Shown: positions 8,199 to 28,413 of the stretch, one piece after another | Numbering within the stretch: the stretch's first letter is position 1 | Layout of the letters: each line of letters opens with the position of its first letter | Assembly (NCBI GenBank): GCA_034723395.1 | Contig: JAYEOW010000050.1 | Coordinates: 1-57,626 of the forward strand | Source: Candidatus Margulisiibacteriota bacterium | GTDB taxonomy: Bacteria; Margulisbacteria; WOR-1; O2-12-FULL-45-9 | Length of the DNA stretch: 57,626 bases | Direction: 5' to 3' | The notes under the pieces: model-generated | Databases searched by the model: none | Told to the model about the DNA's origin: nothing | The model's input: only the letters and a program-made list of their open reading frames with translations | Made by a program: the position numbers and the translations under genes

Positions 8199-8250
8199 TA
8201 AAGGTATAATTCTCCGAAGTCCTCCGAAGCTCCGGAGGAGCGAAGGAGGA

Positions 8251-8362
8251 TGGAGTCCGCGTTTCCCCAACGAACTATTAAATTAATCTTACCGAACAAT
8301 ATTCATGGCTGTAAGAAGATGAATCTCAAAGATCCTAGATAGTCCTTCGACTCTCCCTCGAC
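8251..8362 (+). repeat. Left long inverted repeat (IR-L)
   Basis: Reverse complement of 27124-27235; first 55 nt identical, 104/112 overall by manual alignment. Confidence 0.95.
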
Positions 8363-9329
8363 TCGCTGCGCTCGCTCGGGACAAGGTGCGGTCTGCCCGG
8401 GGAATCCCGCACAATCCCTATATAGTTATATATTGTACACACACTGCGCTGCGTAGCGTCCTATTGCGGCTTCTGGCTTTGTGTTTATATATAAGGCAAT
8501 GATCCTGCTCCTGCTGCTTTGTTCTATTGTGCTTTAAATAAGGGGCAGGTTTTTCACATTAAAAACAGATCATACATTAAGGGTGAGATCCTAATCTTGA
8601 GGCTGGTTTTCAGCTTAAGCCCAGACACAAATAAATGAGCCTGGAGCGGGTTCTACTGTTCTGCTTAAGACCACACACACCCTAAGACAAACAGCTCGAT
8701 CAAAGGGCAGAATTACTTAAGGCAAAATCAGGACCAGCTTCTCATCATACACAAGACCAAAAAATTGGAGCCAGTTTTTCCGCTTCGTTGTTTGCTTTGT
8801 GGCCTGCGGTTAATTTGTGGTGGTAAGCATAGGGGGTGGTTTTTTAAGGAAAAGACAAGGAAAAAAGAGGGTGTTAAAATTCCCGAATTCCCAGATACAA
8901 GGCACCAAGGACAAGACTAAGGAACAGGCCGCTTCGCGCCCCCACCACCACCGCCTCCCAACCCCTTCCGGAAAGCCCTGAGATTATTATTCCCATCATC
9001 ATTTTTTAAAAACCCCGCCACCACCTCGAATTAAAGACACTTTGTACGACCTGCGTGCTGCTCACCAGCTCGCAGCACAGCAGGTCTTCATTGATCCATA
9101 TTTGGGGCAATAATGTTCCCCAACTTTTTCTTCATCGTTTACCGGATCTTTCAAGCTGCCATACCCGGGTGGGTGTTTTATGGATACTTGTCGTTCAATT
9201 GGCCTTATTATCTATATAAAATCACGATACAAGCAAAAAGCCCTATTGTACGGGTTTTCCGCACTATCTGGGGGGATAGACCGCATTATCAGCCGGAAAT
9301 CCCGCATAATGACATATTTATGATATATA

Positions 9330-9357
9330 TTGCAAAAATCCTTTATAGGAGTATAAT
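9330..9357 (+). promoter_or_regulatory. sigma70-type promoter for thermonuclease operon
   Basis: TTGCAA-16 nt-TATAAT. Confidence 0.55.
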
Positions 9358-9369
9358 AACGCCAGAAAC

Positions 9370-9858
9370 ATGACAAAAAGATCATTGGCTATTTTCTGTC
9401 TACTTTTTATAGCCAGTTTGTTCATAACTGGTTTTGGGAAACCTCCTGCTTCAGCGCCTGAAAATATTTACCTTGTAACGAGAGTCATTGATGGCGATAC
9501 GATCGAATTAGCCAATGGCGAAAGAGTAAGATATATTGGTATTGATACGCCAGAAACAAAACATCCCGAAAAACCGGTTCAATACTTCGGCAAAGAAGCC
9601 TATGAAGCAAACAAGAAGCTGGTAGAAGGGAAAAAAGTCAGGCTCGAGTTTGACGTTCAAAAAAGAGATAAATATGGAAGGATACTCGCCTATGTCTATG
9701 TTGATAATATTTTTGTAAATGCATGGTTGGTTGAAAATGGATATGCCTATGCAGCCACTTATCCACCAAATGTTAAGTATCAGGAATCGTTTTTAAAGCT
9801 GCAAAAGGAAGCCAGAAAAAATAAAAGAAGATTATGGAGAGGAGGCCAAAACCAATGA
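9370..9858 (+). CDS. Thermonuclease (SNase family), exported
   Basis: VIDGDT, VRYIGIDTPE, DKYGRILAYV motifs; N-terminal signal. Confidence 0.92.
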   Translation: MTKRSLAIFCLLFIASLFITGFGKPPASAPENIYLVTRVIDGDTIELANGERVRYIGIDTPETKHPEKPVQYFGKEAYEANKKLVEGKKVRLEFDVQKRDKYGRILAYVYVDNIFVNAWLVENGYAYAATYPPNVKYQESFLKLQKEARKNKRRLWRGGQNQ

Positions 9859-10226
9859 GTATTTGGGATCTTTTTAAATTATTCAAAGCAGCACATCACA
9901 GCAATCTTGGTGGCACTTATGCAGAACAGGGTAAACTTGAAGATGCAATTAGAGAATATAAAATGGCATTAGAAATAAATCGAAACTTGGCTGAGACTCA
10001 TTTTGGCTTAGGTGCAGTCTATCAAATGCAGGGCAAATTTGAAGAAGCTATTACTCAATATAAAGTCGGATTGGAAATAAAGCCCGATGATGCTCAAGCA
10101 CATTTTAATCTTGGCCAAATATATAAAGAATTAAATAACGAATCTGAGGCTCAAGAAGAGTTTAATCAAGCTAAGAAAATAGATCCAGATATTATTGGGA
10201 AAGCTTTGAAAGAATTAGGTCAATAA
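9855..10226 (+). CDS. TPR-repeat protein
   Basis: Three TPR units (HSNLG, HFGLG, HFNLG); start moved to ATG 9855. Confidence 0.85.
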   Translation: MSIWDLFKLFKAAHHSNLGGTYAEQGKLEDAIREYKMALEINRNLAETHFGLGAVYQMQGKFEEAITQYKVGLEIKPDDAQAHFNLGQIYKELNNESEAQEEFNQAKKIDPDIIGKALKELGQ

Positions 10227-10270
10227 TGAAATAAAATGAAGCAAGATATAAAAACAACAATAATTATCAT
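10226..10270 (+). repeat. Diverged duplicate of the 5' end of the DUF6804-like gene
   Basis: atgaaataaaatgaagcaagatataaaaacaacaataattatcat vs atgaatccaatgaaacaaaacataaaaacaataataattaccat at 11167-11210. Confidence 0.75.
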
Positions 10271-10294
10271 ATCCTGGGATAGGAGGCAAGTTGA

Positions 10295-11170
10295 ATGAAA
10301 AAGGCAGATTATATTGGCATTGTTGGAGGTATACTAATAGCATCAATTGTAATTGCATTAGCAAAAGAAATTGGTCTTATATTAGGTTTTGTCCCTGCCG
10401 TTTTACTTGTCTTGGGGGGATATTGGCTTACTAAAACAATAGCAAATAGAATAATTAGCGATAAGGAAGAACCAATAGGACCTGTTATAAAAGAAGAAGA
10501 AGAAGAAATGTCACAAGATGTGAAAGATGCTTTGAATAATATGGCTTTAAAAACTGAGGAACTCAAGAGAAAACTAAATAAAGAGCCAAAAGAAAACATT
10601 TGGTCGAAATTTAAAGGGAAACCCAATAAAAAAGGGCTTTTAAAAGGGAAAGCAACTTTTTTAATGCCTCTTTTAGTTGAAAATAGTATTGGGTTGGCTT
10701 CTTTCATTACAGATTATTCTAAAATCCAAGGAAAAGAAAAAATTTTAGTATGGGAATCTTTTGCGTTTTTCTTACATCTTGTAGAAAGAATCAGCTTAGA
10801 ATATCTTAATCCTGAGGATAGTGAGTATTTTTGCAAGGAATTAATAGATTTAATAGCAATAGATAATATTGCCAATTATCTAAAGCAAGGTAGAGATCCC
10901 ACAAAAATAGCTAAAATGAAAGAGGATTCAAAAAATTATTTGACATCAAGATGGTTATCAACTAAAGCAGAATACTTTGAATTTAGCAATCTGCTTCCGG
11001 CTAATCCACGAGAAGGGTTTGCGGATTCCCTATTTTGGCATTTTGGTTCTAAAATAACAGAAATTTTACTCGGCCATCCTGAAGATGCGGTAATCTGTTT
11101 TGCAGTATTGATATGTTGTACTAAAAGCTATATATCATTGCAATTGCACAATCTTTTTAGAGAAGAATGA
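10295..11170 (+). CDS. Hypothetical membrane-anchored protein
   Basis: 291-aa ORF, AGGAGG SD, two N-terminal TMs. Confidence 0.75.
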   Translation: MKKADYIGIVGGILIASIVIALAKEIGLILGFVPAVLLVLGGYWLTKTIANRIISDKEEPIGPVIKEEEEEMSQDVKDALNNMALKTEELKRKLNKEPKENIWSKFKGKPNKKGLLKGKATFLMPLLVENSIGLASFITDYSKIQGKEKILVWESFAFFLHLVERISLEYLNPEDSEYFCKELIDLIAIDNIANYLKQGRDPTKIAKMKEDSKNYLTSRWLSTKAEYFEFSNLLPANPREGFADSLFWHFGSKITEILLGHPEDAVICFAVLICCTKSYISLQLHNLFREE

Positions 11171-11490
11171 ATCCAATGAAACAAAACATAAAAACAATAA
11201 TAATTACCATTGTCGCAATTCTAGCTTTAATTCTACCTGTTTTCACAAAACTGCCCTATAACTATTTCGTAATCCTCCGCTGGTTTATTTGCATCCTTGC
11301 TCTTTATTATGTGTACTTATTCTACACAATTAGAAAATTTGGTCTTTTATGGCTCATGGCAATAATAGCTATTCTCTTTAATCCAATCGCAAAATTTTAT
11401 TTTAGAAAAGAAACTTGGTTAATTATTGATTTGGTTGTTGCAGCAGTTTTCGGATTTAATTTGTTTTATCTAAATAAAATAAGAAAATAA
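11167..11490 (+). CDS. Small membrane protein, DUF6804-like
   Basis: LPY.YF..LRW, ILFNPI and W..ID motifs. Confidence 0.7.
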   Translation: MNPMKQNIKTIIITIVAILALILPVFTKLPYNYFVILRWFICILALYYVYLFYTIRKFGLLWLMAIIAILFNPIAKFYFRKETWLIIDLVVAAVFGFNLFYLNKIRK

Positions 11491-11499
11491 GGAGAACAT

Positions 11500-12405: not shown

Positions 12406-12490
12406 ATTAGCAACTTATGATAGTGTAATGCTAGATATGTTTAGTGAATCTATGATTGATGAATTAATAGAAAATATTCAGGGTGCATAA

Positions 12491-12688
12491 ATGATAAAAA
12501 ATATTCTTCTCGCCATTATAATTTATTTTGCTATAGGCATTATTGTAGTTGCATTAGACTATTGGCGAAATCTACAAGAACCTGTTTATAGTCAGCCTCA
12601 ATATGTTTATAAAAGAGATATGCGCATAATATTATTATGGGTAGTTTTCTGGCCTTTGCTCATTTATTTACGAATTCGTTATCGTTAA
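12491..12688 (+). CDS. Small two-TM protein
   Basis: 65 aa, two hydrophobic stretches, FWP motif. Confidence 0.65.
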   Translation: MIKNILLAIIIYFAIGIIVVALDYWRNLQEPVYSQPQYVYKRDMRIILLWVVFWPLLIYLRIRYR

Positions 12689-12734
12689 TTGAAAATAACG
12701 CACTCCAAGGAGAAAAGTAAAATAGACAACTATA

Positions 12735-14210
12735 ATGGCCGACCAAATCGAATATCTTAATCTAAATGAAATAAATGCCTTGCTCAAATCAATTGATGAT
12801 CTCCGCGACCGTGCGATAGTAACTCTCTTTTTGACCACCGGAGTATTTCTAAAGGAATTGTTCAACCTCAAGATAGATTCGATTAACTGGGAAAAGAAGA
12901 TGCTTGCCATCCCTGGCACCAGGAAGAGGGACATACCATTAAATGACCAGGCCTTTGATGCCCTTGCCAAGTGGTCAAAGGAGCGGCCGGATGTACGCTG
13001 TCCTTCTTTCTTTATAACCACCAAAGGTAAAGTAAAGGGGCTGTCTGACCGCAGTGTTGATCAAATCGTCAGGAAGTATGGCAAGAGGGCAGGGATTGAG
13101 AAAAAGGTCAATGCCCAGATACTCCGCAATACCTTTGCTGTCCGATTGTTTACTGAGGAGATCTCAGCAGACAAGGCAACTGCCATATTGGGTATAACTG
13201 ATGCCGAATCTATCAACCGCTATGCCCAGGCAGCTAAAAAGCCACCGCCCCAGCCACAGATTCCCAAACCTGAGCAGGTTGAACACCTTGATACTCGCCC
13301 CTGGTTCACCAAGCTTATATCCAGGTATTTCCCGACCAAGCCAAAACTGGCTAAGCCGGTTACCGAGATCAAGGGGCCGATTATTCCCAGCCCGGAAGAG
13401 GTTGTTTTTGGCAGAAAAGGTGTTATTGAAGATATAAAGTCTAGCCTTAATAAATTTGAATCAGTTCTGCTGATCGGTCCCATGGGCATTGGCAAGACCC
13501 ATATCCTGAGGCATATGATTAAGATATTGGGCCCCAACACTGTCTATATATCCTCCCCATCTCCTCTTAAAAACATGCTCACACAGATATGCGATAAATT
13601 AAACCCTGATTGGAAAAAGCAGATCAAGACTCGCGCTTCGACCAAGGAGATCGCCGATTTCATCATAAAGAGCAAGGGGGCTAAGCCTCCCATTCTTATT
13701 ATTGATAATCTGAATAACCTTAAGGCCCCGGATACCGATATTTTCTTGTCCCTTTTGGGAAGTTTCTCTATCCTTGCTGATACTGATGAAATGAAACCAA
13801 AGCTCAAGCAGATCTGGTATAAATTTAAGAGGATCGATCTTAATCCCTTAAGCGAAAATGCCGCAAAAGAGCTGATCAGGTATTTAACTCAAAATCTCTC
13901 TATCAGCGATTATGAGATGCTGGAAACAAGGATCATGACCTTATCAAACCGTTTACCTTTAGCCATTGTTGATATGGTCCATCAAGTCAGCCATCGGCCT
14001 GTGGTTACAAGGGACGCGGTCAGGGATGTTTACCACGAAGCGGGGATCAGGTATCGTGACTGGACAGCTGTGATTGTTGTGCTTTGGGGCATGGCGATCA
14101 TGTTTCGTTTTATTGCTTTAGGAACGCACAGTTTTGAAGGATATATCTTGGCCGGGTTTGGTACGGCATTTATGCTGGTGATGAGATTTTTTGTATTTAG
14201 AATGAGGTGA
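12735..14210 (+). CDS. Degenerate tyrosine-recombinase catalytic domain fused to P-loop NTPase and 2 TM helices
   Basis: RDRAI...TGVFLKEL, AQILRNTFA, ILGI...RY (XerC/D-like boxes with substitutions); Walker A GPMGIGKT; Walker B ILIIDN; hydrophobic C-terminus. Confidence 0.85.
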   Translation: MADQIEYLNLNEINALLKSIDDLRDRAIVTLFLTTGVFLKELFNLKIDSINWEKKMLAIPGTRKRDIPLNDQAFDALAKWSKERPDVRCPSFFITTKGKVKGLSDRSVDQIVRKYGKRAGIEKKVNAQILRNTFAVRLFTEEISADKATAILGITDAESINRYAQAAKKPPPQPQIPKPEQVEHLDTRPWFTKLISRYFPTKPKLAKPVTEIKGPIIPSPEEVVFGRKGVIEDIKSSLNKFESVLLIGPMGIGKTHILRHMIKILGPNTVYISSPSPLKNMLTQICDKLNPDWKKQIKTRASTKEIADFIIKSKGAKPPILIIDNLNNLKAPDTDIFLSLLGSFSILADTDEMKPKLKQIWYKFKRIDLNPLSENAAKELIRYLTQNLSISDYEMLETRIMTLSNRLPLAIVDMVHQVSHRPVVTRDAVRDVYHEAGIRYRDWTAVIVVLWGMAIMFRFIALGTHSFEGYILAGFGTAFMLVMRFFVFRMR

Positions 14211-14213
14211 GCG

Positions 14214-15491
14214 ATGAATACTTTTGGTTGTTATAAAAAGAAACAGCTAGATTCTGAGGTTTGCAAAGAATGCAACAAGAAAATAGATGATCAAATTAAT
14301 GAATTGGATCATGGGAAAATAAAAATCGTTGATCCTATATATGGATTAGTAGAAATTGATGATTATATTAAGATCATAATAGATACTTGTTATTTACAAA
14401 GATTGAGAAGGATAAAGCAACTTGGTTTTTCATATCTTACATTCCCAAATGCAACTCACACAAGATTTGAGCATTCTTTAGGCGTTTATTACCTGATTTA
14501 CCGAATATGTGAAAACGAAAATCATGCGATTGATAATAAGTTTAAATTCATATTAAAAACAGCGGCTATTTTGCATGATATAGGACATGGTCCTTTTTCA
14601 CATTTCTCCGAAGAACTTTCTGACCTTGTTCTGGGAAGGGAGCATAGCCACGAAAAAAGAGCAGGAAACATGATTAGTCCGGAATGGTCCTGTTTAAATA
14701 AGACATTAAAGAAGATTATGTCTAAATTGGGTTTTTCTGATAAAGATCAAGCTGATATCCTAAAAAAGATTCCTAACTATATATCAGGTTACAGCAAAGA
14801 TAGTCTATCTTTGTTGATTAATGGCCCAATCGATGTTGATAAAATGGATTACATAGTTAGAGATTCCTATCATACTGGGGTTCCTTTTGGGTTGGGGGTA
14901 GATTTGTTTTTTATTTGTGACAATATAAGATTTGATAAAGTCAAAAAGAACGGACATAAACAAATTATTTTTAATGAAAAAGCTGAAGCAGCAATTCTAA
15001 ATTTATTATATGCTTATGCAACTTCTTATCAAGCCATACATTATCATCATGTTAACATAATTGCTTCAGAGATGATTTTGAAAATATTTAATGATGTAGA
15101 TATTTCCAAAATATCAGATAATGACAAAACAAGCCTTTTTTGGACAGACGATTGCAATTTTTTAAATAGACTAGGAATGATTCTCTCGAAAAAAGCTCAA
15201 AAGAAACAATATCATGAGATTTATAAAATGTTTTTGCGTATAAATAATCGTTGTTTGCCTAAGCGGAAAAAGCAGGGAATAACGGATGTGGGCAAGAAAC
15301 TTGATTTTAACGAAAGACGTGCTGAGGAGAAAAAATCAGAAATTATTACTTGTTCGTCCTTAACAAAGAAGGTCAAAAATGTCGATAGGATTAGAGTGGT
15401 AAAAAGGGACGGGTCATTAAGAGAATTGTTGGGTTATGTAAAAGGAATAAAAGACAGATTTAGAAAAATTGTCTGGGAATGTTCTTTTTAA
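14214..15491 (+). CDS. HD-domain dNTP triphosphohydrolase (SAMHD1/YwfO-like)
   Basis: DPIYG, QRLRRIKQLG, HTRFEHSLG, LHDIGHGPFSH, DVDKMDY. Confidence 0.88.
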   Translation: MNTFGCYKKKQLDSEVCKECNKKIDDQINELDHGKIKIVDPIYGLVEIDDYIKIIIDTCYLQRLRRIKQLGFSYLTFPNATHTRFEHSLGVYYLIYRICENENHAIDNKFKFILKTAAILHDIGHGPFSHFSEELSDLVLGREHSHEKRAGNMISPEWSCLNKTLKKIMSKLGFSDKDQADILKKIPNYISGYSKDSLSLLINGPIDVDKMDYIVRDSYHTGVPFGLGVDLFFICDNIRFDKVKKNGHKQIIFNEKAEAAILNLLYAYATSYQAIHYHHVNIIASEMILKIFNDVDISKISDNDKTSLFWTDDCNFLNRLGMILSKKAQKKQYHEIYKMFLRINNRCLPKRKKQGITDVGKKLDFNERRAEEKKSEIITCSSLTKKVKNVDRIRVVKRDGSLRELLGYVKGIKDRFRKIVWECSF

Positions 15492-15506
15492 TTATGGATG
15501 AAATAA

Positions 15507-16829
15507 ATGCTAGCACCAACTCATAGCGTATTTGGAATATTTTTGACCCTGATTATCCTGGCGGTCTTCGGCGTCCAGTGGAGTCTCCACTGGACCATCA
15601 TCCTTTTTGCCATATTAGGGGCGGTCATGCCGGATATTGATCACCCCAAATCAATTATTGGCAAACTATTCTACTTTATCTCTGCCCCAATTGAGCGAAG
15701 ATACGGTCATCGCACTATAACCCATTCTTTAATTGGCTTGGCGATCTTTACGGTCATATTTGCCGTAATAATTGGCTTGATAAGCTTCCTGCCTCAAATC
15801 TCAGCCTGGGGCTGGACCGATCTTCCTATTCGCTGGATAGCCGCATTTTCGATCAGCTATTTTTCTCATCTGGTGCTTGATATGTTCAACCGTCGTGGCT
15901 CTCAGATGTTCTGGCCTGATCCTGGTAGGGATGTGATTCCCAGAAACCAAAGATTCAGGATTAAGTCTGGGTCGCGCACTGAGATTATTGTTTTTATAGT
16001 GCTCCTGGCTCTGATGTTTCTGGCTTTTCCTATTTCCAAGTACGGCCCGGCCAGTACTGTGCGTTGGCTTCTGGCAACTTCAGGCTCTGCCATTGAAGAA
16101 TTCAAAACCTCAGATACGGTTTCCTATCTGGAGTTCAAAGGTTATTTTAAAAACACAAAACAACCTGTCGAAGGCAGGGCTGAAATTCTCGGTGTTCAGA
16201 ACAAAAGATTAATTATCCTTTTAAAAGACGACGGACAAATATATACAATCAGCGATGAGTTGGCTTCTGATATTCTAGCCGAGAAAATGAGGGTTGAAAA
16301 AAGTAATAAGCCTCTTAAGGTTGAAAAAAGAGAGTTTAAAAATGAGGAACGGGGATATCTATTATCACAAGTCCCTGATGGCGCGCGAATTTCAGGAGTT
16401 ATTAACCTTCCAGCAGGCATGAACGTAACCATTCCTGAATCGCCGGGATTCTTTAAAGTATTCGAACAAAAAGGAGACGATCTTCATCTCAATTTTGCTA
16501 ATCGGGAAATGATCGAAAAGCTGGGTTTAACCGAACAGTTTGACCTCCAGAAGAAAAAAGATATGGTAGAACTTTCTGGCCTCGTGACCCGAGCCAGGAA
16601 GATTAGAAATGAGATTAGCGAAATACAAAGTAAAGATGGTTTAACTGAGCTTGGTCAGACGTTGCTTTTGGGCAAAGATAAAATTGAAAAACAAAATACA
16701 CGCCTAGCCGAGCTAAGAAGCCAGCTTGCTGATGTAAATCTAAAGATCGAGGAAGTTAATCTAAAGATAAAGTCCAGGAAGTTTGTATTTTCAGGAAGCG
16801 TCTATATTAGACAACGAGGAGGAAAATAA
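15507..16829 (+). CDS. YdjM-like membrane metal-dependent hydrolase with long soluble/coiled-coil C-terminus
   Basis: THS, PDIDHP, GHRTITHS, SHLVLD motifs among TMs. Confidence 0.8.
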   Translation: MLAPTHSVFGIFLTLIILAVFGVQWSLHWTIILFAILGAVMPDIDHPKSIIGKLFYFISAPIERRYGHRTITHSLIGLAIFTVIFAVIIGLISFLPQISAWGWTDLPIRWIAAFSISYFSHLVLDMFNRRGSQMFWPDPGRDVIPRNQRFRIKSGSRTEIIVFIVLLALMFLAFPISKYGPASTVRWLLATSGSAIEEFKTSDTVSYLEFKGYFKNTKQPVEGRAEILGVQNKRLIILLKDDGQIYTISDELASDILAEKMRVEKSNKPLKVEKREFKNEERGYLLSQVPDGARISGVINLPAGMNVTIPESPGFFKVFEQKGDDLHLNFANREMIEKLGLTEQFDLQKKKDMVELSGLVTRARKIRNEISEIQSKDGLTELGQTLLLGKDKIEKQNTRLAELRSQLADVNLKIEEVNLKIKSRKFVFSGSVYIRQRGGK

Positions 16830-16830
16830 G

Positions 16831-17361
16831 ATGAAAAGGTTTATTGCAGTGTTTCTGATAATTTTACATTCATTCGTCATTAGTCATTCGGCATTAGGAA
16901 TTGAAAGGGAGTATGTTCTCGGACCGTACGATATGTTAGAAGTCGAGATTATTAACCACCCGGAGCTAAAAACCAAACAAACGGTTACCCCTGACGGCCA
17001 GGCTTCGCTTCCGTTGCTGGGGGTTGTGTCAGTTGAGGGTAAAACTCTTAAAGGGCTGCATGATTTCCTTACCACAAACTACGCTGCTTATATCGAAAAA
17101 CCGCAATTAACGATTAATTTAACACCCAAACCCATCTATGTGATCCAGTATGATCTGAGAAAAGATACCTGGGAAGTTAAAAAGGCTACGTCGATTGATG
17201 AGGCTAAAGCCCTAACAGGGATTGAGCCAACTTTGGCTATTGAGCATGGGAATGTTTATAAGGTTAGTATGGGGAAGAAGGCGGATTGGTTGGAAGACAA
17301 CTGGTACAAAGTAATTACAGCCACGGCGGTTATGGCAGGTATCTACTCAACCTTGAAATAA
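16831..17361 (+). CDS. Polysaccharide export (Wza/Poly_export N-domain) family protein
   Basis: YVLGPYD.L, VTPDG..SLPLLG.V...GKT; signal peptide; GAGGAGG SD before ATG 16831. Confidence 0.8.
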   Translation: MKRFIAVFLIILHSFVISHSALGIEREYVLGPYDMLEVEIINHPELKTKQTVTPDGQASLPLLGVVSVEGKTLKGLHDFLTTNYAAYIEKPQLTINLTPKPIYVIQYDLRKDTWEVKKATSIDEAKALTGIEPTLAIEHGNVYKVSMGKKADWLEDNWYKVITATAVMAGIYSTLK

Positions 17362-17371
17362 GAAGATAATT

Positions 17372-17516
17372 GCTCGCCTTGAGCTTGTCGAAAGGCTTGC
17401 CCTGAGCCCTTCGATTCACTGCGTTCGCTCAGGACAAGCTCCGTCGAAGGGCTTGCCCCGAGCGAACGAACAAAGTGAGGGAGTCGAGGGGGGATTTATT
17501 CGACGTTGAAATAAAA
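17372..17516 (+). repeat. REP-like palindrome cluster and direct repeat copy B
   Basis: Three CCYGAGC...GTCGARGG-type units, one nested; 17421-17516 duplicates 1-108. Confidence 0.85.
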
Positions 17517-17698
17517 GGACGATTGCTTGTTCTGAACGAAGCCAGAGGTTGATTTTTTTGATATTGGGGCGTAGCATTAGGTAGAGCTTTAATAACTGAT
17601 CCAACATAATATGGTGATTTGTAAAACAAAAGCCGCTAGAAATAGCGGATTTTTTCGTTTTTGGTTAAAGGAAGCAAAATTTTAGAGAGGTGTTAAAA

Positions 17699-18844
17699 AT
17701 GGCTCAAAATACGATTAAATGTCCAAAATGTGGGGAAATAATTTCTATAGATGATGTTCTAACCCATGATATAGAAGATAGAGTAAAAAAAGAATTTGAA
17801 GCAAAGCAAAAGATACGAGAAAAAGAACTAGCTTCAAAGTTTATCAAAGAGGCAAGGGCCGAAGCTGAAAAAGAGCAACGAGAAAAAACAAATCTTTTAG
17901 AGGAACAGCTAAAGAGTAAGAATGCAAAATTAGATGATGCCATGAAAAAGGAAGTTGCTCTGCGCAGAGAAAAAATGAAGCTCGATGATGAGAAACGAGC
18001 TTTTGAAACCGAAAAGTTACGCCAATTGGAAGAAGCAAAAAAGACCATTGCTGAGGAAGCTGCCAAAAAAGCAGCAGAAGAACAGCAATATAATATTGCC
18101 CAATTAAAAAAGCAGCTGACAGATGCAACTAAGGCAAAAGATGAGCTTGCACGTAAGCTAGAGCAAGGGTCGCAGCAGACGCAGGGTGAGGTGTTGGAAT
18201 TAGAGTTGGAAGAATTATTGAAAGTAGAATTTCAGCAGGATGAAATTGTTCCTGTGCCCAAAGGCGTAACCGGTGCTGATATTATCCAAACCGTTATGAA
18301 TCGTTCTGGCCGGGAGTGTGGGAAAATTGTTTGGGAATCTAAAAAGACCAAGGCCTGGAGTGAGGGATGGGTGCAGAAGTTAAAAGATGACCAACGGGCG
18401 ATTAAGGCAGATATTGCTGTGCTTGTGTCAGTTACTTTGCCTGAGGGAGTAAATGGCTTTGTTTTTCGCAATAATATTTGGATTTGTGATGTTAAAACTT
18501 TTATCGCGTTAGCTACGACGCTGAGGATGAGCCTGGAAGCCGTAACCCGAGAAAGATCGATGTCTGTGGGCAAAAACGAAAAAATGGAAGTGCTTTATTC
18601 TTATTTAACTGGCGTAGAGTTTCGCCAAAGGGTAGAGGCAATTATTGAAGCTTTTTCGAATATGGATACAAGTTTAAAAAAAGAACGGATAGCTTATGAA
18701 AAAATATGGGCTGAGCGTGAGCAACAGCTTAAAAAAGTGATGAAAAGTACGATTGGTATGTATGGTGATATGAGCGGGTTAGTTACGCTTCCGCAGATAA
18801 AAACTTTGGAGTTGGGGGAGGGGAAAAGTCATAAAGATAGTTAG
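17699..18844 (+). CDS. DUF2130 domain protein
   Basis: IKCPKCG Zn ribbon, coiled coil, GSQQ.QGEVLE..LE, G.D and WESKKTK nuclease-like motifs. Confidence 0.85.
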   Translation: MAQNTIKCPKCGEIISIDDVLTHDIEDRVKKEFEAKQKIREKELASKFIKEARAEAEKEQREKTNLLEEQLKSKNAKLDDAMKKEVALRREKMKLDDEKRAFETEKLRQLEEAKKTIAEEAAKKAAEEQQYNIAQLKKQLTDATKAKDELARKLEQGSQQTQGEVLELELEELLKVEFQQDEIVPVPKGVTGADIIQTVMNRSGRECGKIVWESKKTKAWSEGWVQKLKDDQRAIKADIAVLVSVTLPEGVNGFVFRNNIWICDVKTFIALATTLRMSLEAVTRERSMSVGKNEKMEVLYSYLTGVEFRQRVEAIIEAFSNMDTSLKKERIAYEKIWAEREQQLKKVMKSTIGMYGDMSGLVTLPQIKTLELGEGKSHKDS

Positions 18845-20534
18845 GTTAACAATAAACAATTTTAGGGGTATAAATAAGTTTTCACAGAATTTATTCGATA
18901 AGGATAGTATTTATTTTGTTGGGAGGGGAGATACGGGAAAATCAACAATATTAGATGCGATCTCGCTTGTTTTTTCTCCAAATTCGTATTTACATTTTTA
19001 TGATAGTGATTTTTACAATAGTAACACTAATGATCCAATTGAGATTGAAGTATCTATAGTGGATTTCCCTCAGAAACTGATAACAGAGTTTAAGTATTTT
19101 TCTCATTTGAGAGTAATGGATAAGAATACTGGAAATATATATGATGATATTGAAGTTATTCAAGATATTCCAGATGACTTTGAGAAAGTATTAACGATAA
19201 AATTTGAAGTTAATAAAGACTTGGAAGCTAAGTGGTATGTTATAAGTGATCGACATGAGCCAGTTCAAATGTCACCAAGGGATAGAGGGAGTCTCAATGT
19301 TTATAAAATATCAGATTATATTGACAGGCACTTTTACTGGAGTAAAGGAAGTCCTTTGTATTCACTTTTATTAGATGATGAGGGGGCTGAGGATGTTGTT
19401 AAAGAAAATATTATTGTAGATGTAGTAAGGCAGGTAAAGCAGAAAATTGATGAATGTCCATTTGAAAGTTTTCAGAATGTGACGGCTAAAATCAAAACAC
19501 AGGTTTCAAATTATGGAATAAAAATAGATGATGTAAAAACCTCAATTGATTTTAAGGATATATCAATAAAAGAAGGCCAGGTTTGTTTGCATGATAAAAA
19601 CATTCCTTTTAGGCTAAAGGGTAAAGGGTCGAAAAGGTTAATATCAATTGCAATTCAGGCAGCCCTTGCGCAGAAGAGTGGGATAATTCTCGTGGATGAA
19701 ATAGAGCAAGGTTTAGAACCAGATAGGGTGAAGCAATTAATAAGAACGATTAAAGCTGCTGGACATGGCCAAATGTTTGTTACCACTCACTCGGTAGAAG
19801 CGATTACAGAAATCGATTGTTGTGAACTAGGTGTTTTAAAAAATGACAAAGGAAGTGTGTCTGTTAATTATCCCGATAAGGAGCTTCAGGGCGTCGTGAG
19901 GGCTTGTCCACAAGCTTTTTTTTCTAATAAAATTATTGTTTGTGAGGGAAACACTGAAGTTGGATTATGCAGAGCGTTGGATATCAATAGAAAAGCTAAC
20001 GATAAGGAATATATGGCTTTTTTGGGGTGTGTGTATATTTGTGGTATGGGGGACAACTTTCCCAATTATGCCTTAAAATTAAAATCGCTGGGATTCAATA
20101 CAGCAATTTTGTGTGATTCTGATAAAGATTATTTAAGCCATTCAAAGAAAGAATTGGCCGATAATGGTATTGAAATATATGATTGTGATAAAGAGAAATC
20201 CATAGAGAATCAATTGTTTTGTGATTTGCTATGGAAAGCAGTTGCTGAGTTGATAAAATATAGAGAAGAAACGGATGGGCATACCAAGAATGCAATAGCA
20301 CAGGCAGTTAAATCAAAATATGGGGCAAAATTTCCGGATCAATGGTTGGAAGATGACACTCTCAGAATGAGAACCGCAATAAGCGAAGCATCGGTCGTTA
20401 AGGGGAAAGAGTGGTTTAAAAGAATTGATCATGGGGAATTTCTTGGAAAAAAAATATTTGAGTATAAAGCAGAAATGCTTGAAAAGAGAATAGTAAGAAT
20501 GATGGATGATCTGTCGAAATGGATTGATGAATGA
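18831..20534 (+). CDS. gajA: Gabija GajA-like OLD-family ATPase/TOPRIM nuclease (needs ATA start at 18831)
   Basis: Frame open from ATA 18831: NFRGI, Walker A GRGDTGKST, Walker B LVDEIE, TTHS, TOPRIM CEG..E and DSD. Confidence 0.8.
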   Translation: MKIVRLTINNFRGINKFSQNLFDKDSIYFVGRGDTGKSTILDAISLVFSPNSYLHFYDSDFYNSNTNDPIEIEVSIVDFPQKLITEFKYFSHLRVMDKNTGNIYDDIEVIQDIPDDFEKVLTIKFEVNKDLEAKWYVISDRHEPVQMSPRDRGSLNVYKISDYIDRHFYWSKGSPLYSLLLDDEGAEDVVKENIIVDVVRQVKQKIDECPFESFQNVTAKIKTQVSNYGIKIDDVKTSIDFKDISIKEGQVCLHDKNIPFRLKGKGSKRLISIAIQAALAQKSGIILVDEIEQGLEPDRVKQLIRTIKAAGHGQMFVTTHSVEAITEIDCCELGVLKNDKGSVSVNYPDKELQGVVRACPQAFFSNKIIVCEGNTEVGLCRALDINRKANDKEYMAFLGCVYICGMGDNFPNYALKLKSLGFNTAILCDSDKDYLSHSKKELADNGIEIYDCDKEKSIENQLFCDLLWKAVAELIKYREETDGHTKNAIAQAVKSKYGAKFPDQWLEDDTLRMRTAISEASVVKGKEWFKRIDHGEFLGKKIFEYKAEMLEKRIVRMMDDLSKWIDE

Positions 20535-21947
20535 ATGGATTATCAAGATTTCGTTTTAAAGGAAAAAAGTCTTCTTGTTGCTCCGGCAGGATTTGGCAAA
20601 ACATATACTATAGCGAAATGTCTAGAATTCACACAGGGCAGACAACTTGTTTTGACTCATACGCAAGCGGGAGTAGCTTCGCTTAGGGAAAAGATTAAAT
20701 CAAACGGGATAGATCCAAGAAAATATCGCATTCAAACAATAATGAGTTATGCGCAGAAATATGTTAATGCGTTTTATGTTGGTAAAGATGTCCCTGATCA
20801 GGAGACAAAAGCATATTGGCCCTTTATTCTTGAAAAAGCAACTGCTCTACTACGATTAAAACTTATAACTGATATTATAAAGGCTACATATTGTGGGCTA
20901 TTTGTTGATGAATATCAGGATTGCACTATTTCACAACATAAATTTATAGCTTCGATATCATCTAATATGCCAACACACATATTAGGGGATCCACTTCAGG
21001 GAATATTTGATTTTAATAAAGAGAAACTTGTGATATTTGACGAAGATCTTAAGGATTATATTAAAAACAAAGTTCAATTGACTGAACCACAGAGGTGGAT
21101 GAGGGGGAATAATCTCCGCTTAGGAGAGTGTTTGCATGAGATTAGGGGGAAGTTGGAAAGACGGGAGAACCTTGACCTGGGGGAGTATGATTCAGTTATT
21201 GAGGTTGAAATTGCCGGAGAAAATTCTTCATATATATCTCATAAGAAAATCTGGGATTTAATTGATGGTGAAGATAGTCTACTGATATTACATCCTGATA
21301 GCTTCAGCATTGGTGCAAGATTGAGGATTACAAAAATATATAGGAACTTGATTTATCTAGTTGAGTCAATAGATAGTGGTGATTTCTATAAACTTGCAAA
21401 AATGCTTGACTCGATGTCTATACAAAATGTTGGGAACATTCTAAAAAAAATATCGTATAAGTTATTCAATAGTGGTGAGTTGGATAAGTGGTTTAGTGAA
21501 AGTCCAAAAAAGTATTTCAAAGATAAAACAGTAGATGCTGAGCAAAAAAAAGTTAAGCCTATAAGTGAATTGTTTGGAATATTAAAGGTAAAGACATCCT
21601 TTTCTCTGTTTTCAATGATTTTGCGAGAGATATATAGTCTTGCAAATAAAAAATGTTTCAGAAAGGAGCTGTTTTTTGATCTTTGTACGGCGTTAAACCA
21701 AGCTGATGAGAACACATCTGTTTATAATGCAATGAAAACATTGCGCAACCATAGGCGTATAATGGGGAGAAAAATATACGGAAAATGTATTGGCACAACA
21801 TTATTGACAAAAGGATTAGAGGCTGATGTTGTTGTTGTCTTAGATGCCCATAAGTTTAAGGATCCAAAAAATATTTATGTTGCATTGACGAGGGCCTCGA
21901 AAAAGTTGGTTGTTTATTCTAGAGATAGGGTGTTGTCTCCTTATTAA
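20535..21947 (+). CDS. gajB: Gabija GajB-like UvrD helicase
   Basis: APAGFGKT, FVDEYQD, GDPLQ, TKGLE, YVALTRA; abuts gajA stop. Confidence 0.82.
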   Translation: MDYQDFVLKEKSLLVAPAGFGKTYTIAKCLEFTQGRQLVLTHTQAGVASLREKIKSNGIDPRKYRIQTIMSYAQKYVNAFYVGKDVPDQETKAYWPFILEKATALLRLKLITDIIKATYCGLFVDEYQDCTISQHKFIASISSNMPTHILGDPLQGIFDFNKEKLVIFDEDLKDYIKNKVQLTEPQRWMRGNNLRLGECLHEIRGKLERRENLDLGEYDSVIEVEIAGENSSYISHKKIWDLIDGEDSLLILHPDSFSIGARLRITKIYRNLIYLVESIDSGDFYKLAKMLDSMSIQNVGNILKKISYKLFNSGELDKWFSESPKKYFKDKTVDAEQKKVKPISELFGILKVKTSFSLFSMILREIYSLANKKCFRKELFFDLCTALNQADENTSVYNAMKTLRNHRRIMGRKIYGKCIGTTLLTKGLEADVVVVLDAHKFKDPKNIYVALTRASKKLVVYSRDRVLSPY

Positions 21948-22021
21948 AAATTAACAAAAAAACTAGCCGCCGTTAAGACGGGGTTGTAACAATATGGTTT
22001 TGCGAGGGGAGGTGAAATACT

Positions 22022-22249: not shown

Positions 22250-22284
22250 AAATTATCAAAAAAGATATCTAAGGATGGTCAATT

Positions 22285-22605: not shown

Positions 22606-22608
22606 AAA

Positions 22609-22656
22609 GCATGTTAAAAAAACGTATGCCGAAAAATTAAGCTGGATGTTATCAAA
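22609..22656 (+). repeat. Diverged duplicate of the 3' end of the KTSC-like gene
   Basis: gcatgttaaaaaaacgtatgccgaaaaattaagctggatgttatcaaa vs 22213-22260 gcatgttagaaaagcatatgcctcaaaattaaactagaaattatcaaa. Confidence 0.8.
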
Positions 22657-22701
22657 CCAAATAACTGGTTGAATGAAGATGTGATTGGGAGAAGGGATAA
22701 A

Positions 22702-24192: not shown

Positions 24193-24292
24193 TCTCGCAC
24201 CACCATCTTTCTCTGTTAATGGAATCATAAGCTTCTTTAGTTGAAGATAGCTTGCCCTATACATACTCGAAGTGTAGAATTTTAAAATCAAC

Positions 24293-24784
24293 ATGAAGAG
24301 GCAAAAAAGACAATATGTAAGAGATGGAAGGGCCCCAATTCCCGAAAAAGAAATAACTTCGCAAATCATGAGCGCGATAAAAGGCAAAAATACGTCTCCG
24401 GAGAAAAAATTAAAGAAAGCACTGATGAAGCTCAGGATTAATGGTCTAAGAACCCATCTAAAAACTTTGCCCGGTGTCCCAGACATTAGCTATCCGAAAG
24501 AAAAAGTTGCTATCTTTGTTAATGGTTGTTTTTGGCACCGCTGTCCGAAATGTAAGCTCAAATTGCCAAAGACCCACAAGTCTTATTGGAAGCGTAAATT
24601 TACTAGAAATGTTGAAAGAGATAAAAAAAATATAAAATTATTGAAAAAAGAAGGTTGGACTGCCAAAACAATCTGGGAATGTGAAATAAAAAAAGATGCT
24701 TTAAAAGTTGCTGAGAGAATTGATAAAGCATTGGCTAAAAAACGATCAAGAGGATATAATACCAGCATCCATGAAAAAGAATGA
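24293..24784 (+). CDS. vsr: Very short patch repair endonuclease
   Basis: MSAIKGKNTSPE, LPG.PD, NGCFWH, IWEC. Confidence 0.92.
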   Translation: MKRQKRQYVRDGRAPIPEKEITSQIMSAIKGKNTSPEKKLKKALMKLRINGLRTHLKTLPGVPDISYPKEKVAIFVNGCFWHRCPKCKLKLPKTHKSYWKRKFTRNVERDKKNIKLLKKEGWTAKTIWECEIKKDALKVAERIDKALAKKRSRGYNTSIHEKE

Positions 24785-25478
24785 TTATAAAGACATTCTA
24801 AAACAAGCTAAAGTATTTTTCAAACAAACAATAGCTGTTAATCATTTGAAGAATTGTGAAAAGGCATCGAAACTCTCTGACTATAATGTTAATCCTTTTT
24901 TGATCAAATATCTGGCTAATTTTCTCCGGGGGGACGAAAAACCAAGAAGCATTGCCGAGGCTTTGGTTTATCCGCGGATACTGGGGACGTCTATCACAAC
25001 ATCTTTTGGTAATAATGTACAAAAATTTATAAGCCAGGTTTTGAAAGGGTTTGGGTCTGCAGTTGGCGGTATTGATATCGAATTTATTGACCATGAAGAT
25101 GGCAGAAAGAAATACGCCCAATTAAAATTAGGGCCAAACTGCATTAACAAGGACGATATTTCAACAATTATAGGGCATTTTAAAAAAGTGAGGAACCTCG
25201 CAAGAACAAACAACTTAAATATTGGAATCGATGATCTCGCAATAGGGGTTTTGTATGGCCGAAGGGAAGAACTTAATTCTTTCTATAAAAAGTTGAATTT
25301 TGATTATCCTGTTTTTGTTGGTGAAACTTTTTGGTACCGGCTTACTGGGCATAGGAAATTTTATTTTGACTTAATTAATATTTTCGGGGAGGTTGCTGTT
25401 GAAGTTGATGGAACAAAGGCGTTGAAAGAAACGATTGATGCCTTGGAAAAAGAAATAAAAATTAGCCCCTCTTTCTAA
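24771..25478 (+). CDS. Type II restriction endonuclease (PmeII/EcoO109I-like)
   Basis: NPFL..YLA, TSITTSFG, GIDIEF, QLK.GPN.IN; lies between vsr and 5mC MTase; start moved to 24771. Confidence 0.7.
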   Translation: MKKNDYKDILKQAKVFFKQTIAVNHLKNCEKASKLSDYNVNPFLIKYLANFLRGDEKPRSIAEALVYPRILGTSITTSFGNNVQKFISQVLKGFGSAVGGIDIEFIDHEDGRKKYAQLKLGPNCINKDDISTIIGHFKKVRNLARTNNLNIGIDDLAIGVLYGRREELNSFYKKLNFDYPVFVGETFWYRLTGHRKFYFDLINIFGEVAVEVDGTKALKETIDALEKEIKISPSF

Positions 25479-25523
25479 CCCTTCCCTGTCCCGAAAAAGG
25501 AAAAGCGTATAAAAAAATAACCC

Positions 25524-25552
25524 TTGCCATATGCATTGGTTATCAGTATAAT
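25524..25552 (+). promoter_or_regulatory. sigma70 promoter giving a leaderless MTase transcript
   Basis: TTGCCA-17 nt-TATAAT, 6 nt before ATG 25559. Confidence 0.7.
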
Positions 25553-25558
25553 AGCTTT

Positions 25559-26797
25559 ATGAAAAAGAATGTGGTGACGGTAGCTGATGCCGCAGAATTG
25601 CTAGATGTTTCCGTTGATACTATTCGAAGATGGGAAAAAAAGGGCTTAATTAAGTCAAAACGGTCCGACCACAATTATAGGCTTTTCAACCTCCAAGAAA
25701 TTAAGCGTATCTTAAAAAGGAACGATCCTTCTTCCGGAAAAAGTAAATATAGGATCCTTAGGGCAAGAAATAGAACAAATTATTCTGTTATTGATTTGTT
25801 CTCGGGCGCTGGCGGAACTGCTCTTGGCTTTGAAAATGCCGGCTTAAACCATGTTTTTTTGAATGAGATTAATAAGGATGCTATTAGTTCGCTTCGGCTA
25901 AATAAGCCGCGCTGGAAGGTTAATGGTGGTGATATCTCTGAAATTTCATTCAAAGGGATGAAGGCTGATATTGTTGAGGGAGGGTTTCCTTGCCAAGCCT
26001 TCAGTTATGCAGGAAACAAATTAGGGTTTGAAGATGCGAGAGGTACTCTGTTTTTCCAGTTTGTCCGTTGTATAAAAGAAGTAAGGCCGAAGATTGCTGT
26101 GGGTGAGAACGTGCGCGGTCTTTTAAGGCATGACAATGGTCGGACATTAAAATCAATGGTTAGCATCCTAAATGATATTGGATACAAAGTTGTTTACAGG
26201 GTACTAAGATCACAGTACCTTGATGTGCCCCAAAAACGTGAAAGGCTAATTATGTTTGCCTTAAGAAGAGATTTGGATCCTATTTTTGTTTTCCCAAAAG
26301 AAAAAGATTATATAGTGACTTTAGGAGAAGCATTAAAGAATTGTCCAGGGTCTCCGAGCCAAAAATATCCTGTAGGTAAAAAGAAAATTCTGTCATTAGT
26401 TCCTCCTGGCGGTTATTGGAAAGACTTGCCCAAAAAATTGCAGAAAAAATATATGGGCGCTAGTTTTTATATGGGAGGGGGCAAAACTGGAATGGCAAGA
26501 AGGCTTTCATGGGATGAGCCATCCCTTACGCTGACCTGTAGCCCTGCTCAGAAACAAACGGAACGATGTCACCCCGAAGAGACAAGACCCCTTTCTGTGA
26601 GAGAATATGCAAGAATACAAACTTTTCCTGACAGTTGGGAATTTGTTGGATCGACAGCATCACAATATAAGCAAATAGGGAATGCTGTGCCAGTTAATTT
26701 GGGCTACCATATAGCAAAGGCTGTTATTGCGATGCTTGATGGTATATACGATTCGAAATTAGTGGATATTGTTGATTCAAGAGGAAGAGTGAATTAG
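25559..26797 (+). CDS. dcm: DNA (cytosine-5)-methyltransferase with N-terminal MerR-like HTH
   Basis: DLFSGAGG, GFPCQ, ENV, Q.RER, GNAV; TRD like GGNCC-type enzymes (Sau96I/Eco47II); N-terminal AAELLDVSVDTIRRWE. Confidence 0.92.
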   Translation: MKKNVVTVADAAELLDVSVDTIRRWEKKGLIKSKRSDHNYRLFNLQEIKRILKRNDPSSGKSKYRILRARNRTNYSVIDLFSGAGGTALGFENAGLNHVFLNEINKDAISSLRLNKPRWKVNGGDISEISFKGMKADIVEGGFPCQAFSYAGNKLGFEDARGTLFFQFVRCIKEVRPKIAVGENVRGLLRHDNGRTLKSMVSILNDIGYKVVYRVLRSQYLDVPQKRERLIMFALRRDLDPIFVFPKEKDYIVTLGEALKNCPGSPSQKYPVGKKKILSLVPPGGYWKDLPKKLQKKYMGASFYMGGGKTGMARRLSWDEPSLTLTCSPAQKQTERCHPEETRPLSVREYARIQTFPDSWEFVGSTASQYKQIGNAVPVNLGYHIAKAVIAMLDGIYDSKLVDIVDSRGRVN

Positions 26798-26835
26798 CAC
26801 CGCTTTTTGGTTTTTCAGCGAGCACCATTTATTAG

Positions 26836-27042
26836 AGCGGGGCTAAACTAGAACTCCTAACCAAACAAGAAGTCGCAAAACTGCTAAAAGTTAATCCAAG
26901 AACCATTACCCACTTAACTTCTACAAGGCGAATCCCTTTTGTAAAAGGCATTGGCAAAGAACACCGCTATCTAAGAAGCTCCATAATTGAGTGGCTCAAA
27001 CAACGTGAAGTTAAGCCGCTGAATGATTATGTTGATCTCTAA
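26836..27042 (+). pseudogene. 5'-truncated excisionase-like HTH_17 protein
   Basis: LLTKQEVAKLLKVNPRTI...RIPFVKGIGKEHRY.RSSIIEWL; in-frame TAG at 26833 and no start codon; absent from ORF track. Confidence 0.7.
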
Positions 27043-27097
27043 TTAAAAACCGCCCCGGAAAAAAGAGCACTAAAAAGTAATCTTTTTAAAATTACGT

Positions 27098-27131
27098 GTC
27101 CCGAGCCTGGTTCCCCCGAGCTTGTCGAGGG
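27098..27131 (+). repeat. 34-bp nested REP-like unit, identical copy at 28530-28563
   Basis: GTCCCGAGCCTGGTTCCCCCGAGCTTGTCGAGGG in both places. Confidence 0.9.
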
Positions 27132-27235
27132 AGAGTCGAAGGGTTATCTTGGAGCCTTAAGATTCATCTTCTTACAACCGTGAATATTGTTCGGTAAGAT
27201 TAATTTAATAGTTCGTTGGGGAAACGCGGACTCCA
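27124..27235 (-). repeat. Right long inverted repeat (IR-R)
   Basis: Reverse complement of 8251-8362. Confidence 0.95.
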
Positions 27236-28412: not shown

Positions 28413-28413
28413 A

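Follow-up and report, generated by a model that had tools for sequence, protein, structure and literature searches.

Inverted repeats that look like gene tails with REP-like units flank 19 kb of anti-phage genes next to ssrA in a Candidatus Margulisiibacteriota bacterium

The locus described here bears on how defence islands come to be put together and rearranged. In a contig of a Candidatus Margulisiibacteriota bacterium (JAYEOW010000050.1), a 19-kb block of anti-phage genes lies within a larger low-GC island downstream of ssrA and is bracketed by two inverted repeats with TG...CA ends. Are these repeats the ends of a transposon, the relics of an integration event, copies of a small gene or RNA, or sites at which the block recombines and may be inverted? 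The analysis covered the whole contig of 57,626 nucleotides, which we call the window, and the features discussed below are collected in Table 1.

The repeat was first described in a sequence-only reading as 112 bp long and lacking a target-site duplication, and both statements were borne out. The outermost 55 nt are perfect and 104 of the 112 positions are identical, and the reverse complementarity of the two arms extends to 117 nt with 91% identity. The 10 mismatches are found at the arm positions 56, 59, 77, 80, 82, 86, 92, 93, 113 and 114. The inverted repeat is real and far beyond chance. Within 3 nt on either side of the arm boundaries no direct repeat of at least 4 nt was detected. The homology has a sharp edge at 5'-TG / CA-3' on the outer side, and the outer flanks share no further homology; one 30-nt match (80%, E = 0.02) between the left outer and the right inner flank is T-run/GC-rich terminator-like sequence. 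That both copies end at the identical nucleotide is left unexplained by the reading we favour below, unless only one copy was truncated. Across the 57.6 kb, a search for further copies found only the two arms (nhmmer, with E = 3e-41 and E = 4e-41), the best remaining match having E = 0.56; a third copy, even a degenerate one, was not seen in the window. Plasmid and phage collections contained no copy either. A 20-mer of the arm tip gave a single chance match among 185,579 species genomes, of which the source genome is evidently not one; it lies in a Conexibacter chromosome and does not extend past the 20-mer.

Table 1. Positions of the repeat arms, their reading frames and the surrounding features in the window
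Feature	Position	Strand	Remarks
Left arm of the inverted repeat	8251..8367	+	tip TGGAG at 8251
Right arm of the inverted repeat	27119..27235	-	tip at 27235
Left-arm inward frame	8250..8342	+	ATG (A in flank) + 29 codons + TAG
Right-arm inward frame	27144..27236	-	CTG + 29 codons + TAA
REP-like family sites	1-71, 8108-8141, 8344-8400, 17380-17491, 27098-27140, 28530-28571		
REP-like GC-rich hairpin unit, left	8344..8400		directly after left stop codon
REP-like unit, right	27098..27140		directly after right stop codon; 34 nt identical to 28530-28563
Internal REP-like cluster	17380..17525		divides the block into two modules
Intrinsic-terminator-like hairpin + T-run	8173..8198	-	outside left arm; strong
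Hairpin + UUUGUUUUU	about 27249..27288	+	outside right arm, between convergent methylase and HATPase/DUF4325 genes
Cargo module 1: SNase, TPR, DUF6804, membrane-like proteins of no known identity	9370..12405	+	
Cargo: degenerate Tyr-recombinase-like/ATPase fusion, HD protein, YdjM-type hydrolase fusion	12735..16829	+	
Gabija	18801..21947	+	GajA open from 18801; GajB 20535-21947
Vsr, EcoO109I-like endonuclease, C5 cytosine methylase	24293..26797	+	
tmRNA gene	28724..29140	-	3' end faces the low-GC island

When the arms were read from the tip inward, their differences turned out to be codon-phased. In one inward frame, counted with its stop, 6 of the 7 differences fall on third codon positions; between the left and the right copy there are 5 synonymous changes, 1 D/A replacement and a TAG/TAA exchange at the matching codon. 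In the other five frames, 0-4 silent changes stand against 3-8 non-silent ones. For a null expectation 7 substitutions were placed at random 20,000 times in the arm positions 56-92 and the best of the six frames was taken each time. Only 0.3% of these placements reached at least 6 silent changes (p about 0.003). The first 18 codons contain no synonymous change, whereas the last 13 contain 6 silent ones (hypergeometric p about 0.002, calculated by hand), a distribution that points to an extra constraint at the nucleotide level or to a recent conversion. In both arms a REP-like unit begins 1-3 nt after the stop codon. Because the divergence is codon-phased and a REP-like hairpin follows the stop, the arm is better read as a gene tail than as a transposon terminus. 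Each arm resembles the final 29 codons of an unannotated open reading frame without known relatives, with a 3' REP after them, and we infer that the arms were or are translated.

The predicted 29-residue tail was then searched for in protein collections. Word-index searches found no protein of 25-81 or 82-2000 residues with three 5-mers in common, phmmer against 1.84 billion representatives gave 0 matches at E <= 0.001, and Pfam, PHROGs and the window itself contained no match or paralogue. Neither frame is joined to a gene body. The left one is closed 16 codons upstream of the arm, and the right one continues from the HATPase/DUF4325 gene only across the normal stop of that gene. A lost C-terminal extension of the HATPase/DUF4325 protein was ruled out as the source of the right arm, since the best 120 of its 7312 homologues (E <= 1e-5) are 333-389 residues long.

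The surroundings of the arms are those of a mosaic island. The REP-like GC-rich family occupies six places, all in the low-GC left half of the window. The inner 20 nt or so of each arm merge into such a unit, as had been proposed from the sequence, and further units follow the stops of 7680-8105 (by 2 nt) and 16783-17361 (by 18 nt) and lie at other module borders of the island. The first 115 or so positions of the contig are a direct repeat of 17421-17525. REP and BIME elements are extragenic palindromes, and the arms resemble them in that their inner 20 nt and the sequence beyond form GC-rich hairpin units just after stops. In contrast to them, the first 95 nt or so of the arms lie outside the family and occur in only 2 copies, and the arms fold no better than shuffles, so that a REP/REPIN assignment does not fit the arms as a whole. 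The outward-facing terminators claimed just outside both repeats were also recovered. The left one, read from 8198 to 8173, has no minus-strand gene to serve; the right one was not flagged by the terminator scan, which is limited to 8-nt loops, probably since its loop is longer. Between the arms, all 18 open reading frames scanned are on one strand, and the Vsr, EcoO109I-like and methylase genes make up a Vsr/type II restriction-modification set.

Our preferred reading, to which we give a rough probability of 0.35, is that the arms are duplicated gene-end modules at which recombination takes place and through which the block could be inverted. Each arm would be a copy of a gene 3' end, comprising 29 codons and the stop, with the REP-like hairpin immediately after it, and the two copies would have been placed tail-to-tail around the mosaic 19-kb defence block. 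They would then be recombination junctions of a REP-littered island rather than transposon termini. Their outer 55 nt may be held identical by repeated exchange or conversion between the arms, or by a constraint on the sequence. The pair could serve as the substrate for inverting the whole block, whether through homologous recombination or with a recombinase whose gene lies elsewhere, and the terminators outside the two arms would shield the neighbours whichever way the block is turned. On this reading, exchange between the arms would occur and the block would invert.

It is possible, if unlikely, that the arms are instead the terminal inverted repeats of a large non-autonomous transposon with defence cargo, whose transposase is encoded elsewhere and for which the 55 nt are the binding end. 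Such an element would have the sharp TG...CA boundary and the perfect outer end with divergence further in that are observed here, its cargo lies in an island beside ssrA, and the absence of a transposase from the inside is what a non-autonomous element predicts. None of the 31 open reading frames scanned has a transposase domain, those of no known function did not reveal a hidden one even at E <= 1, and no tnsABC, DDE or ATPase transposition set was found in the window. The earlier statement that the segment has no transposase thus stands for transposases, but a degenerate tyrosine-recombinase domain is located inside it, at 12735-14210.

The motifs that gave the repeat its transposon flavour were compared with shuffles of the outer 75 nt of the arm. 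The two CGAAC half-sites and the ATTCA dyad are present as described, but neither exceeds chance: an exact direct repeat of at least 5 nt occurred in 77% of the shuffles and an equally good dyad in 22%. The best 22-nt direct-repeat window in the arm agreed at 10 of 22 positions, which was matched by 98.5% of the shuffles. With the supposed subterminal binding repeats at chance level, no target-site duplication, and a codon-phased divergence with a kept stop, which is not predicted for a transposon end, the case for TG...CA ends and half-sites as transposon features is weakened. TG...CA ends with short internal repeats should not be read as transposase sites without such a chance control. Also against a transposon, the contig, the plasmids, the phages and, by the 20-mer, the species genomes yielded no other copy, and a look-up of 10 proteins at 90% identity gave 9 singletons, namely 8 of the 9 taken from the block and the HATPase gene product outside it. 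With its proteins mostly singletons at this level, the block has not spread recently as a unit. Large cargo transposons (Tn7-like, Mu-like and those with IS3/IS21 ends) and MITE composites have TG...CA termini, long ends, defence cargo and sites at RNA genes, and by description the locus shares TG...CA, long ends, defence cargo and the vicinity of an RNA gene with them. It differs in having no 5-bp or other duplication and no transposition genes, and in arms that are near-symmetric and codon-phased, with internal repeats at chance level and no further copies found.

We regard as improbable that the arms are relics of site-specific integration, in which mobile elements aimed at a gene (or at ssrA) bring along a substitute for its 3' end, so that native and imported copies of one gene tail are left at the island borders, and one of them was later inverted. 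The tails do differ mainly synonymously, like alleles from different hosts, their identical 55 nt could serve as a crossover core, and the site lies within a low-GC island, at a distance of 1.5 kb from the tmRNA 3' end. However, the copies are inverted instead of direct, neither is joined to an intact gene body, and no database protein was found to end in the 29-residue tail. The outer end of the arm had been thought to echo the tmRNA 3' end, and this similarity proved to be at chance level. When the arm was aligned locally to the final 64 nt of tmRNA, the result was no better than for 69% of the shuffles, only 13 of 25 bases agreed in the end-anchored register, and the 3' 22-mer of tmRNA, with up to 3 mismatches allowed, had no copy in the window besides the tmRNA gene itself. 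The gene adjoining the tmRNA 3' end encodes the HATPase/DUF4325 protein and no integrase. The proposal of two head-to-head ssrA att sites is therefore not upheld, given no second tmRNA 3' end, no integrase and only chance similarity. Islands that target tRNA or tmRNA genes are bounded by direct repeats of the RNA 3' end and carry an integrase. The locus is like them in that a low-GC defence island adjoins tmRNA at its 3' end, while smpB and core genes flank tmRNA on the opposite side; it is unlike them in that the window has neither the direct repeat nor the integrase.

A similarly small chance is left for two copies of a free-standing 30-codon gene, intact on the left and cut at its start on the right, or of a small RNA, which bracket the block by an accident of duplication. 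The purifying-selection pattern and the conserved stop would fit such a gene, the left copy has an ATG with TATAAT at 8205-8210 and GGAGG motifs upstream, and the empty protein searches would be explained by the rare annotation of such short proteins. Against it, the homology sets in precisely with the TG of the start codon, and the right copy has CTG at this position, with none of the 42 open codons upstream being a canonical start. The left promoter-like site has no -35 element. Only 5 of 31 genes of this organism have a Shine-Dalgarno motif, and the left GGAGG is therefore no evidence of translation. Codon usage is uninformative on whether the frame codes, as 25% (left) and 42% (right) of open unannotated windows reach the same score. 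For the RNA version, Rfam returned nothing for the arms at gathering score or E-value thresholds (best sub-threshold hit 29.2 bits against 75), ARAGORN called the tmRNA as the sole RNA gene, and the fold z-scores of the arms against shuffles were +0.68, +0.74, -0.06 and +0.60. An outward transcript would, moreover, come from the other strand than the coding-type frame. Two small-RNA copies, as suggested from the sequence, are thus not supported, given the lack of a family, folding no better than shuffles and a substitution pattern of the protein-coding type.

Among the three explanations first offered, an invertible region fits best because the arms are inverted with 55 identical nt, lack a target-site duplication and read inward as coding sequence, with terminators facing outward. 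The arms have the inverted orientation that two recombination sites of an invertible segment would have. No active recombinase is encoded nearby. The protein encoded at 12735-14210 contains a tyrosine-recombinase catalytic domain with F, Q and I at the Arg-I, His-II and His-III positions, where its plasmid homologues retain the catalytic residues, and the loss of these three residues ruled it out as the invertase. No informative inverted repeats were found around the plasmid homologues. A promoter-like site lies inside the block (9330-9357, 10 of 12 positions), so the cargo needs no outside promoter and an inversion could pass without an obvious phenotype.

The phage Mu G segment and the shufflons are examples of gene-altering programmed inversion. 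In PMC9881135, such inversions have inverted repeats in coding sequence that read inward from the ends of the invertible DNA, make no target duplication and often occur in defence loci, some without a nearby recombinase. Compared with these inversions, hsdS and pglX switches included, the locus is similar in its inward-reading, apparently coding repeats, the missing duplication and its place in a defence locus. The differences are that no outside gene body is fused to the arms, that both arms encode the same 29-residue tail and hence no variant protein, and that several whole systems lie within the 19 kb, where the only recombinase-like domain is degenerate. A stronger version of the preferred reading is a programmed invertible defence cassette, with translated gene tails as sites, identical over 55 nt and under purifying selection in both arms because each would be expressed in turn, and with an outside recombinase that flips Gabija, the restriction-modification genes and the recombinase-like/HD/hydrolase module together. 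We consider this version very unlikely.

A chance similarity or an assembly artefact at a common 55-mer is scarcely credible: the window is a whole assembled contig that starts inside a repeat, and the perfect stretch has exactly 55 nt, a k-mer length common in assemblers, but the similarity continues to 117 nt with 10 mismatches, which a graph artefact would not produce, the interior does not form a palindrome, and the repeat exceeds chance by far. An artefact would affect at most the written orientation of the block.

If no inversion takes place, the pair is an ordinary recombination scar of a mosaic island. If it does, the block would be an unusually large switch that acts on several systems at once. 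Repeats that resemble transposon ends and carry the coding signature of a gene tail would mark a different route of island reshuffling, in which multi-system blocks are exchanged or inverted at duplicated gene-end/REP modules with no resident transposase.

Over positions 1 to about 28,700 the G+C content was 32-46%, versus 44-55% in the remainder of the window, which is one entire assembled contig. The remainder is core genome (smpB, dapB, dut, proAB, leuS, a clpC-like gene, trpBA, pyrF, rpsA, gltX). On the low G+C, the core genes on the far side and the tmRNA 3' end facing in, we take the whole left half to be an island beside ssrA, with the repeat-bounded 19-kb block (8251-27235) nested in it. 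As a whole it resembles ssrA-linked genomic islands, but without their direct repeats and integrase in the window. The tmRNA tag predicted by ARAGORN is unusually long (28 residues, ending AYAA). A minus-strand gene for a HATPase with a STAS-like DUF4325 domain (27363-28424) adjoins the tmRNA 3' end. It has more than 7300 homologues, and the best 120, the window's own entry aside, are 66-85% identical, nearly fixed in length at about 350 aa, with source names from Margulisbacteria, CPR groups and Deltaproteobacteria; the gene is highly conserved and evidently mobile. Outside the block, a second restriction-type pair, an EcoRI-like adenine methylase followed by a GmrSD-N/HNH endonuclease, was found at 1297-3522, and in the N-terminal part of the ClpB/ClpC-type chaperone at 45675-48503 (minus strand) 39 residues matched the McsA zinc-finger activator.

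Features of the island and the block
Feature	Position	Strand	Remark
REP-like units	1-71, 8108-8141, 8344-8400, 17380-17491, 27098-27140, 28530-28571		
SNase, TPR, DUF6804, unknown proteins	in block	plus	
Recombinase-like/ATPase fusion, HD protein, YdjM-type hydrolase fusion	12735-16829	plus	
Poly_export fragment, DUF2130	in block	plus	
Gabija: GajA, then GajB	in block, GajA open from 18801	plus	
DUF2779, Vsr, EcoO109I-like endonuclease, C5 methylase	in block	plus	
tmRNA gene	28724-29140	minus	3' end toward low-GC part

The block is bounded by two arms (8251-8367 and 27119-27235), which are reverse complements over 117 nt with 91% identity. The sequence-only reading had described 112 bp with 55 nt perfect and 104 matches in all, and both figures were reproduced within the longer extent. 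The 10 mismatches lie at arm positions 56, 59, 77, 80, 82, 86, 92, 93, 113 and 114, leaving the outermost 55 nt identical. The outer edge of the homology is abrupt, at 5'-TG, and no further homology was found between the outer flanks. The absence of a target-site duplication held, with no direct repeat of at least 4 nt within 3 nt of the arm ends on either side. When the 57.6-kb window was searched with an arm profile, two places were recovered (E = 3e-41 and 4e-41), the next best having E = 0.56. The outer 20-mer had a single match in species genomes, in Conexibacter, without extension beyond it, and the plasmid and phage collections gave no match to the arm. Across the window and these collections, the arm showed no sign of being the high-copy dispersed repeat that had been considered before. 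The arm repeat is real and unusual.

When the arms were read from the outer tip inward, both shared one open frame of 29 codons with the stop in register (TAG in the left arm, TAA in the right). Seven arm differences fall within the frame and its stop, six of them at the third codon position. Codons for His, Gly, Leu, Lys and Pro account for five synonymous changes, the stop codon for a sixth silent one, and the only replacement is Asp/Ala. The remaining five frames had 0-4 silent versus 3-8 non-silent changes. With 7 substitutions placed at random in positions 56-92 (20,000 trials, best of six frames scored), six silent changes were reached in 0.3% of trials. A REP-like unit follows 1-3 nt past the arm stop codon, and the genes 7680-8105 and 16783-17361 also carry one after their stops. 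From the codon phase, the shared stop and this placement, the arm unit has the anatomy of a gene 3' end with a 3' REP, suggesting a coding gene tail, neither a transposon end nor an RNA. The first 18 codons had no change, versus six silent changes in the last 13 (hand hypergeometric p ~0.002), which suggests that the outer 55 nt are either under additional nucleotide-level constraint or recently homogenised. Several results limit this coding reading. Codon usage of the frame was indistinguishable from that of other open windows. The right copy begins with CTG, no canonical start codon lies upstream of its frame, and the encoded peptide had no relative in any protein search run; a Shine-Dalgarno motif precedes only 5 of the 31 genes. 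The right frame runs on through 42 open codons (27236-27365, minus strand) from the in-frame TAG that ends the HATPase/DUF4325 gene, a continuity judged coincidental because the family length is fixed (333-389 aa among the best 120 homologues).

The REP-like units are GC-rich hairpins with the motifs CCCTCGAC, CTCGGGAC and GTCGAAGG, mostly directly past stop codons. All six places are at module borders in the island, and the 29-kb core part of the contig has none. A direct repeat of the REP-like cluster joins the contig start (1-115) to 17421-17525 in the middle of the block, with 99% identity over 71 nt and continuing past a 12-nt indel, and this is probably where the contig broke.

The outward terminators reported on both sides are real. 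The left one has a 10-bp stem and a T-run on the minus strand (8198-8173), and no minus-strand gene is present for it in the present orientation; the right one, on the plus strand, is a hairpin with UUUGUUUUU after it and was not flagged by a consensus scan. Besides this orphan terminator, the left flank (8166-8250) contains a CU/GA-rich hairpin of 8 bp (8221-8240), and upstream of the pair no minus-strand gene is present; together they may mark a small RNA, or the 3' end that remains of a gene since lost. Directly inside the left arm, 8363-9112 comprises 750 nt without an ORF above 83 codons, with C-rich low-complexity runs and no Rfam match.

Genes in the block are on the plus strand only, with promoter-like sites of their own. 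Nine of ten proteins looked up (eight of nine from the block, and the HATPase protein outside it) were singletons at 90% identity, which argues that the block has not spread recently as a unit. The recombinase-like domain (12735-14210) aligns to XerA with F, Q and I at Arg-I, His-II and His-III, whereas its plasmid homologues in Flavobacterium and Haliscomenobacter keep all three. Despite this loss, the protein falls in a 90% cluster whose 8 members lie on other contigs. Both here and on two Bacteroidota plasmids (L002:6938-10164 and L003:6962-10022), one protein combines a tyrosine recombinase catalytic domain, a P-loop ATPase and two membrane helices at the C-terminus, and is followed by a YdjM-type 'metal-dependent hydrolase' of about 430 aa; the HD protein between them is added in the window copy. 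As judged from these copies, fusion and hydrolase form a conserved pair of genes, as yet uncharacterised. Closely following the pair on the Haliscomenobacter plasmid (L003) are two copies of a perfect palindrome of 33-40 nt, one on the hydrolase side of a KilA-N gene (10038-10077) and one within it (10868-10900); the palindrome is a possible site for that plasmid's recombinase.

Tn7-like elements have TG...CA ends and defence cargo. Both are found here, but three defining features of these elements were tested and were absent. That the block is a non-autonomous transposon is unlikely, although it ranks next after our preferred reading: the target-site duplication is missing, the arm divergence is codon-phased and the sub-motifs give no support. 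The window ORFs hold no transposase, as noted before. The internal half-sites and dyad proposed earlier are present but uninformative: when the outer 75 nt were shuffled, 77% of the shuffles had an exact direct repeat of a 5-mer, 22% had a dyad as good as the observed one, and 98.5% equalled the best direct match over 22 nt (10/22).

Relics of integration are improbable, with the arm orientation wrong, no gene body attached and no integrase. The proposed att sites of ssrA-targeting elements fail likewise: a second tmRNA 3' end was not found in the window, and the loose echo of that end is unconvincing, its local alignment being matched by 69% of shuffles and its end-anchored register giving 13/25 matches. 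Equally improbable are copies of a free-standing mini-gene or small RNA. Rfam, ARAGORN and folding against shuffles rejected an RNA gene. An assembly artefact or chance is very improbable.

Mu G and the shufflons are gene-altering programmed inversions. Such systems (PMC9881135) have coding repeats reading inward at both ends, which is the geometry of the arms here. Unlike them, no outside gene is fused to the arms, the two tails are identical in kind, and the span is 19 kb with no active invertase nearby; the earlier proposal of an invertible region stands on the inverted arms with 55 identical bases and lacks this enzyme.

Taken together, we tentatively favour, at a probability of about 0.35, a reading in which duplicated gene-end/REP modules make up the arms and act as junctions for recombination within a mosaic island. 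This would account for the sharp edges and the identical core, for the codon phase seen in each arm, for the lack of both a target-site duplication and a transposase, and for the terminators facing outward on either flank; it leaves the shared end nucleotide of both copies unexplained. The inverted arms would let the block invert, whether through homologous recombination or through a recombinase whose gene lies elsewhere, and since the cargo comes with promoter-like sites, inversion would have no obvious phenotype.
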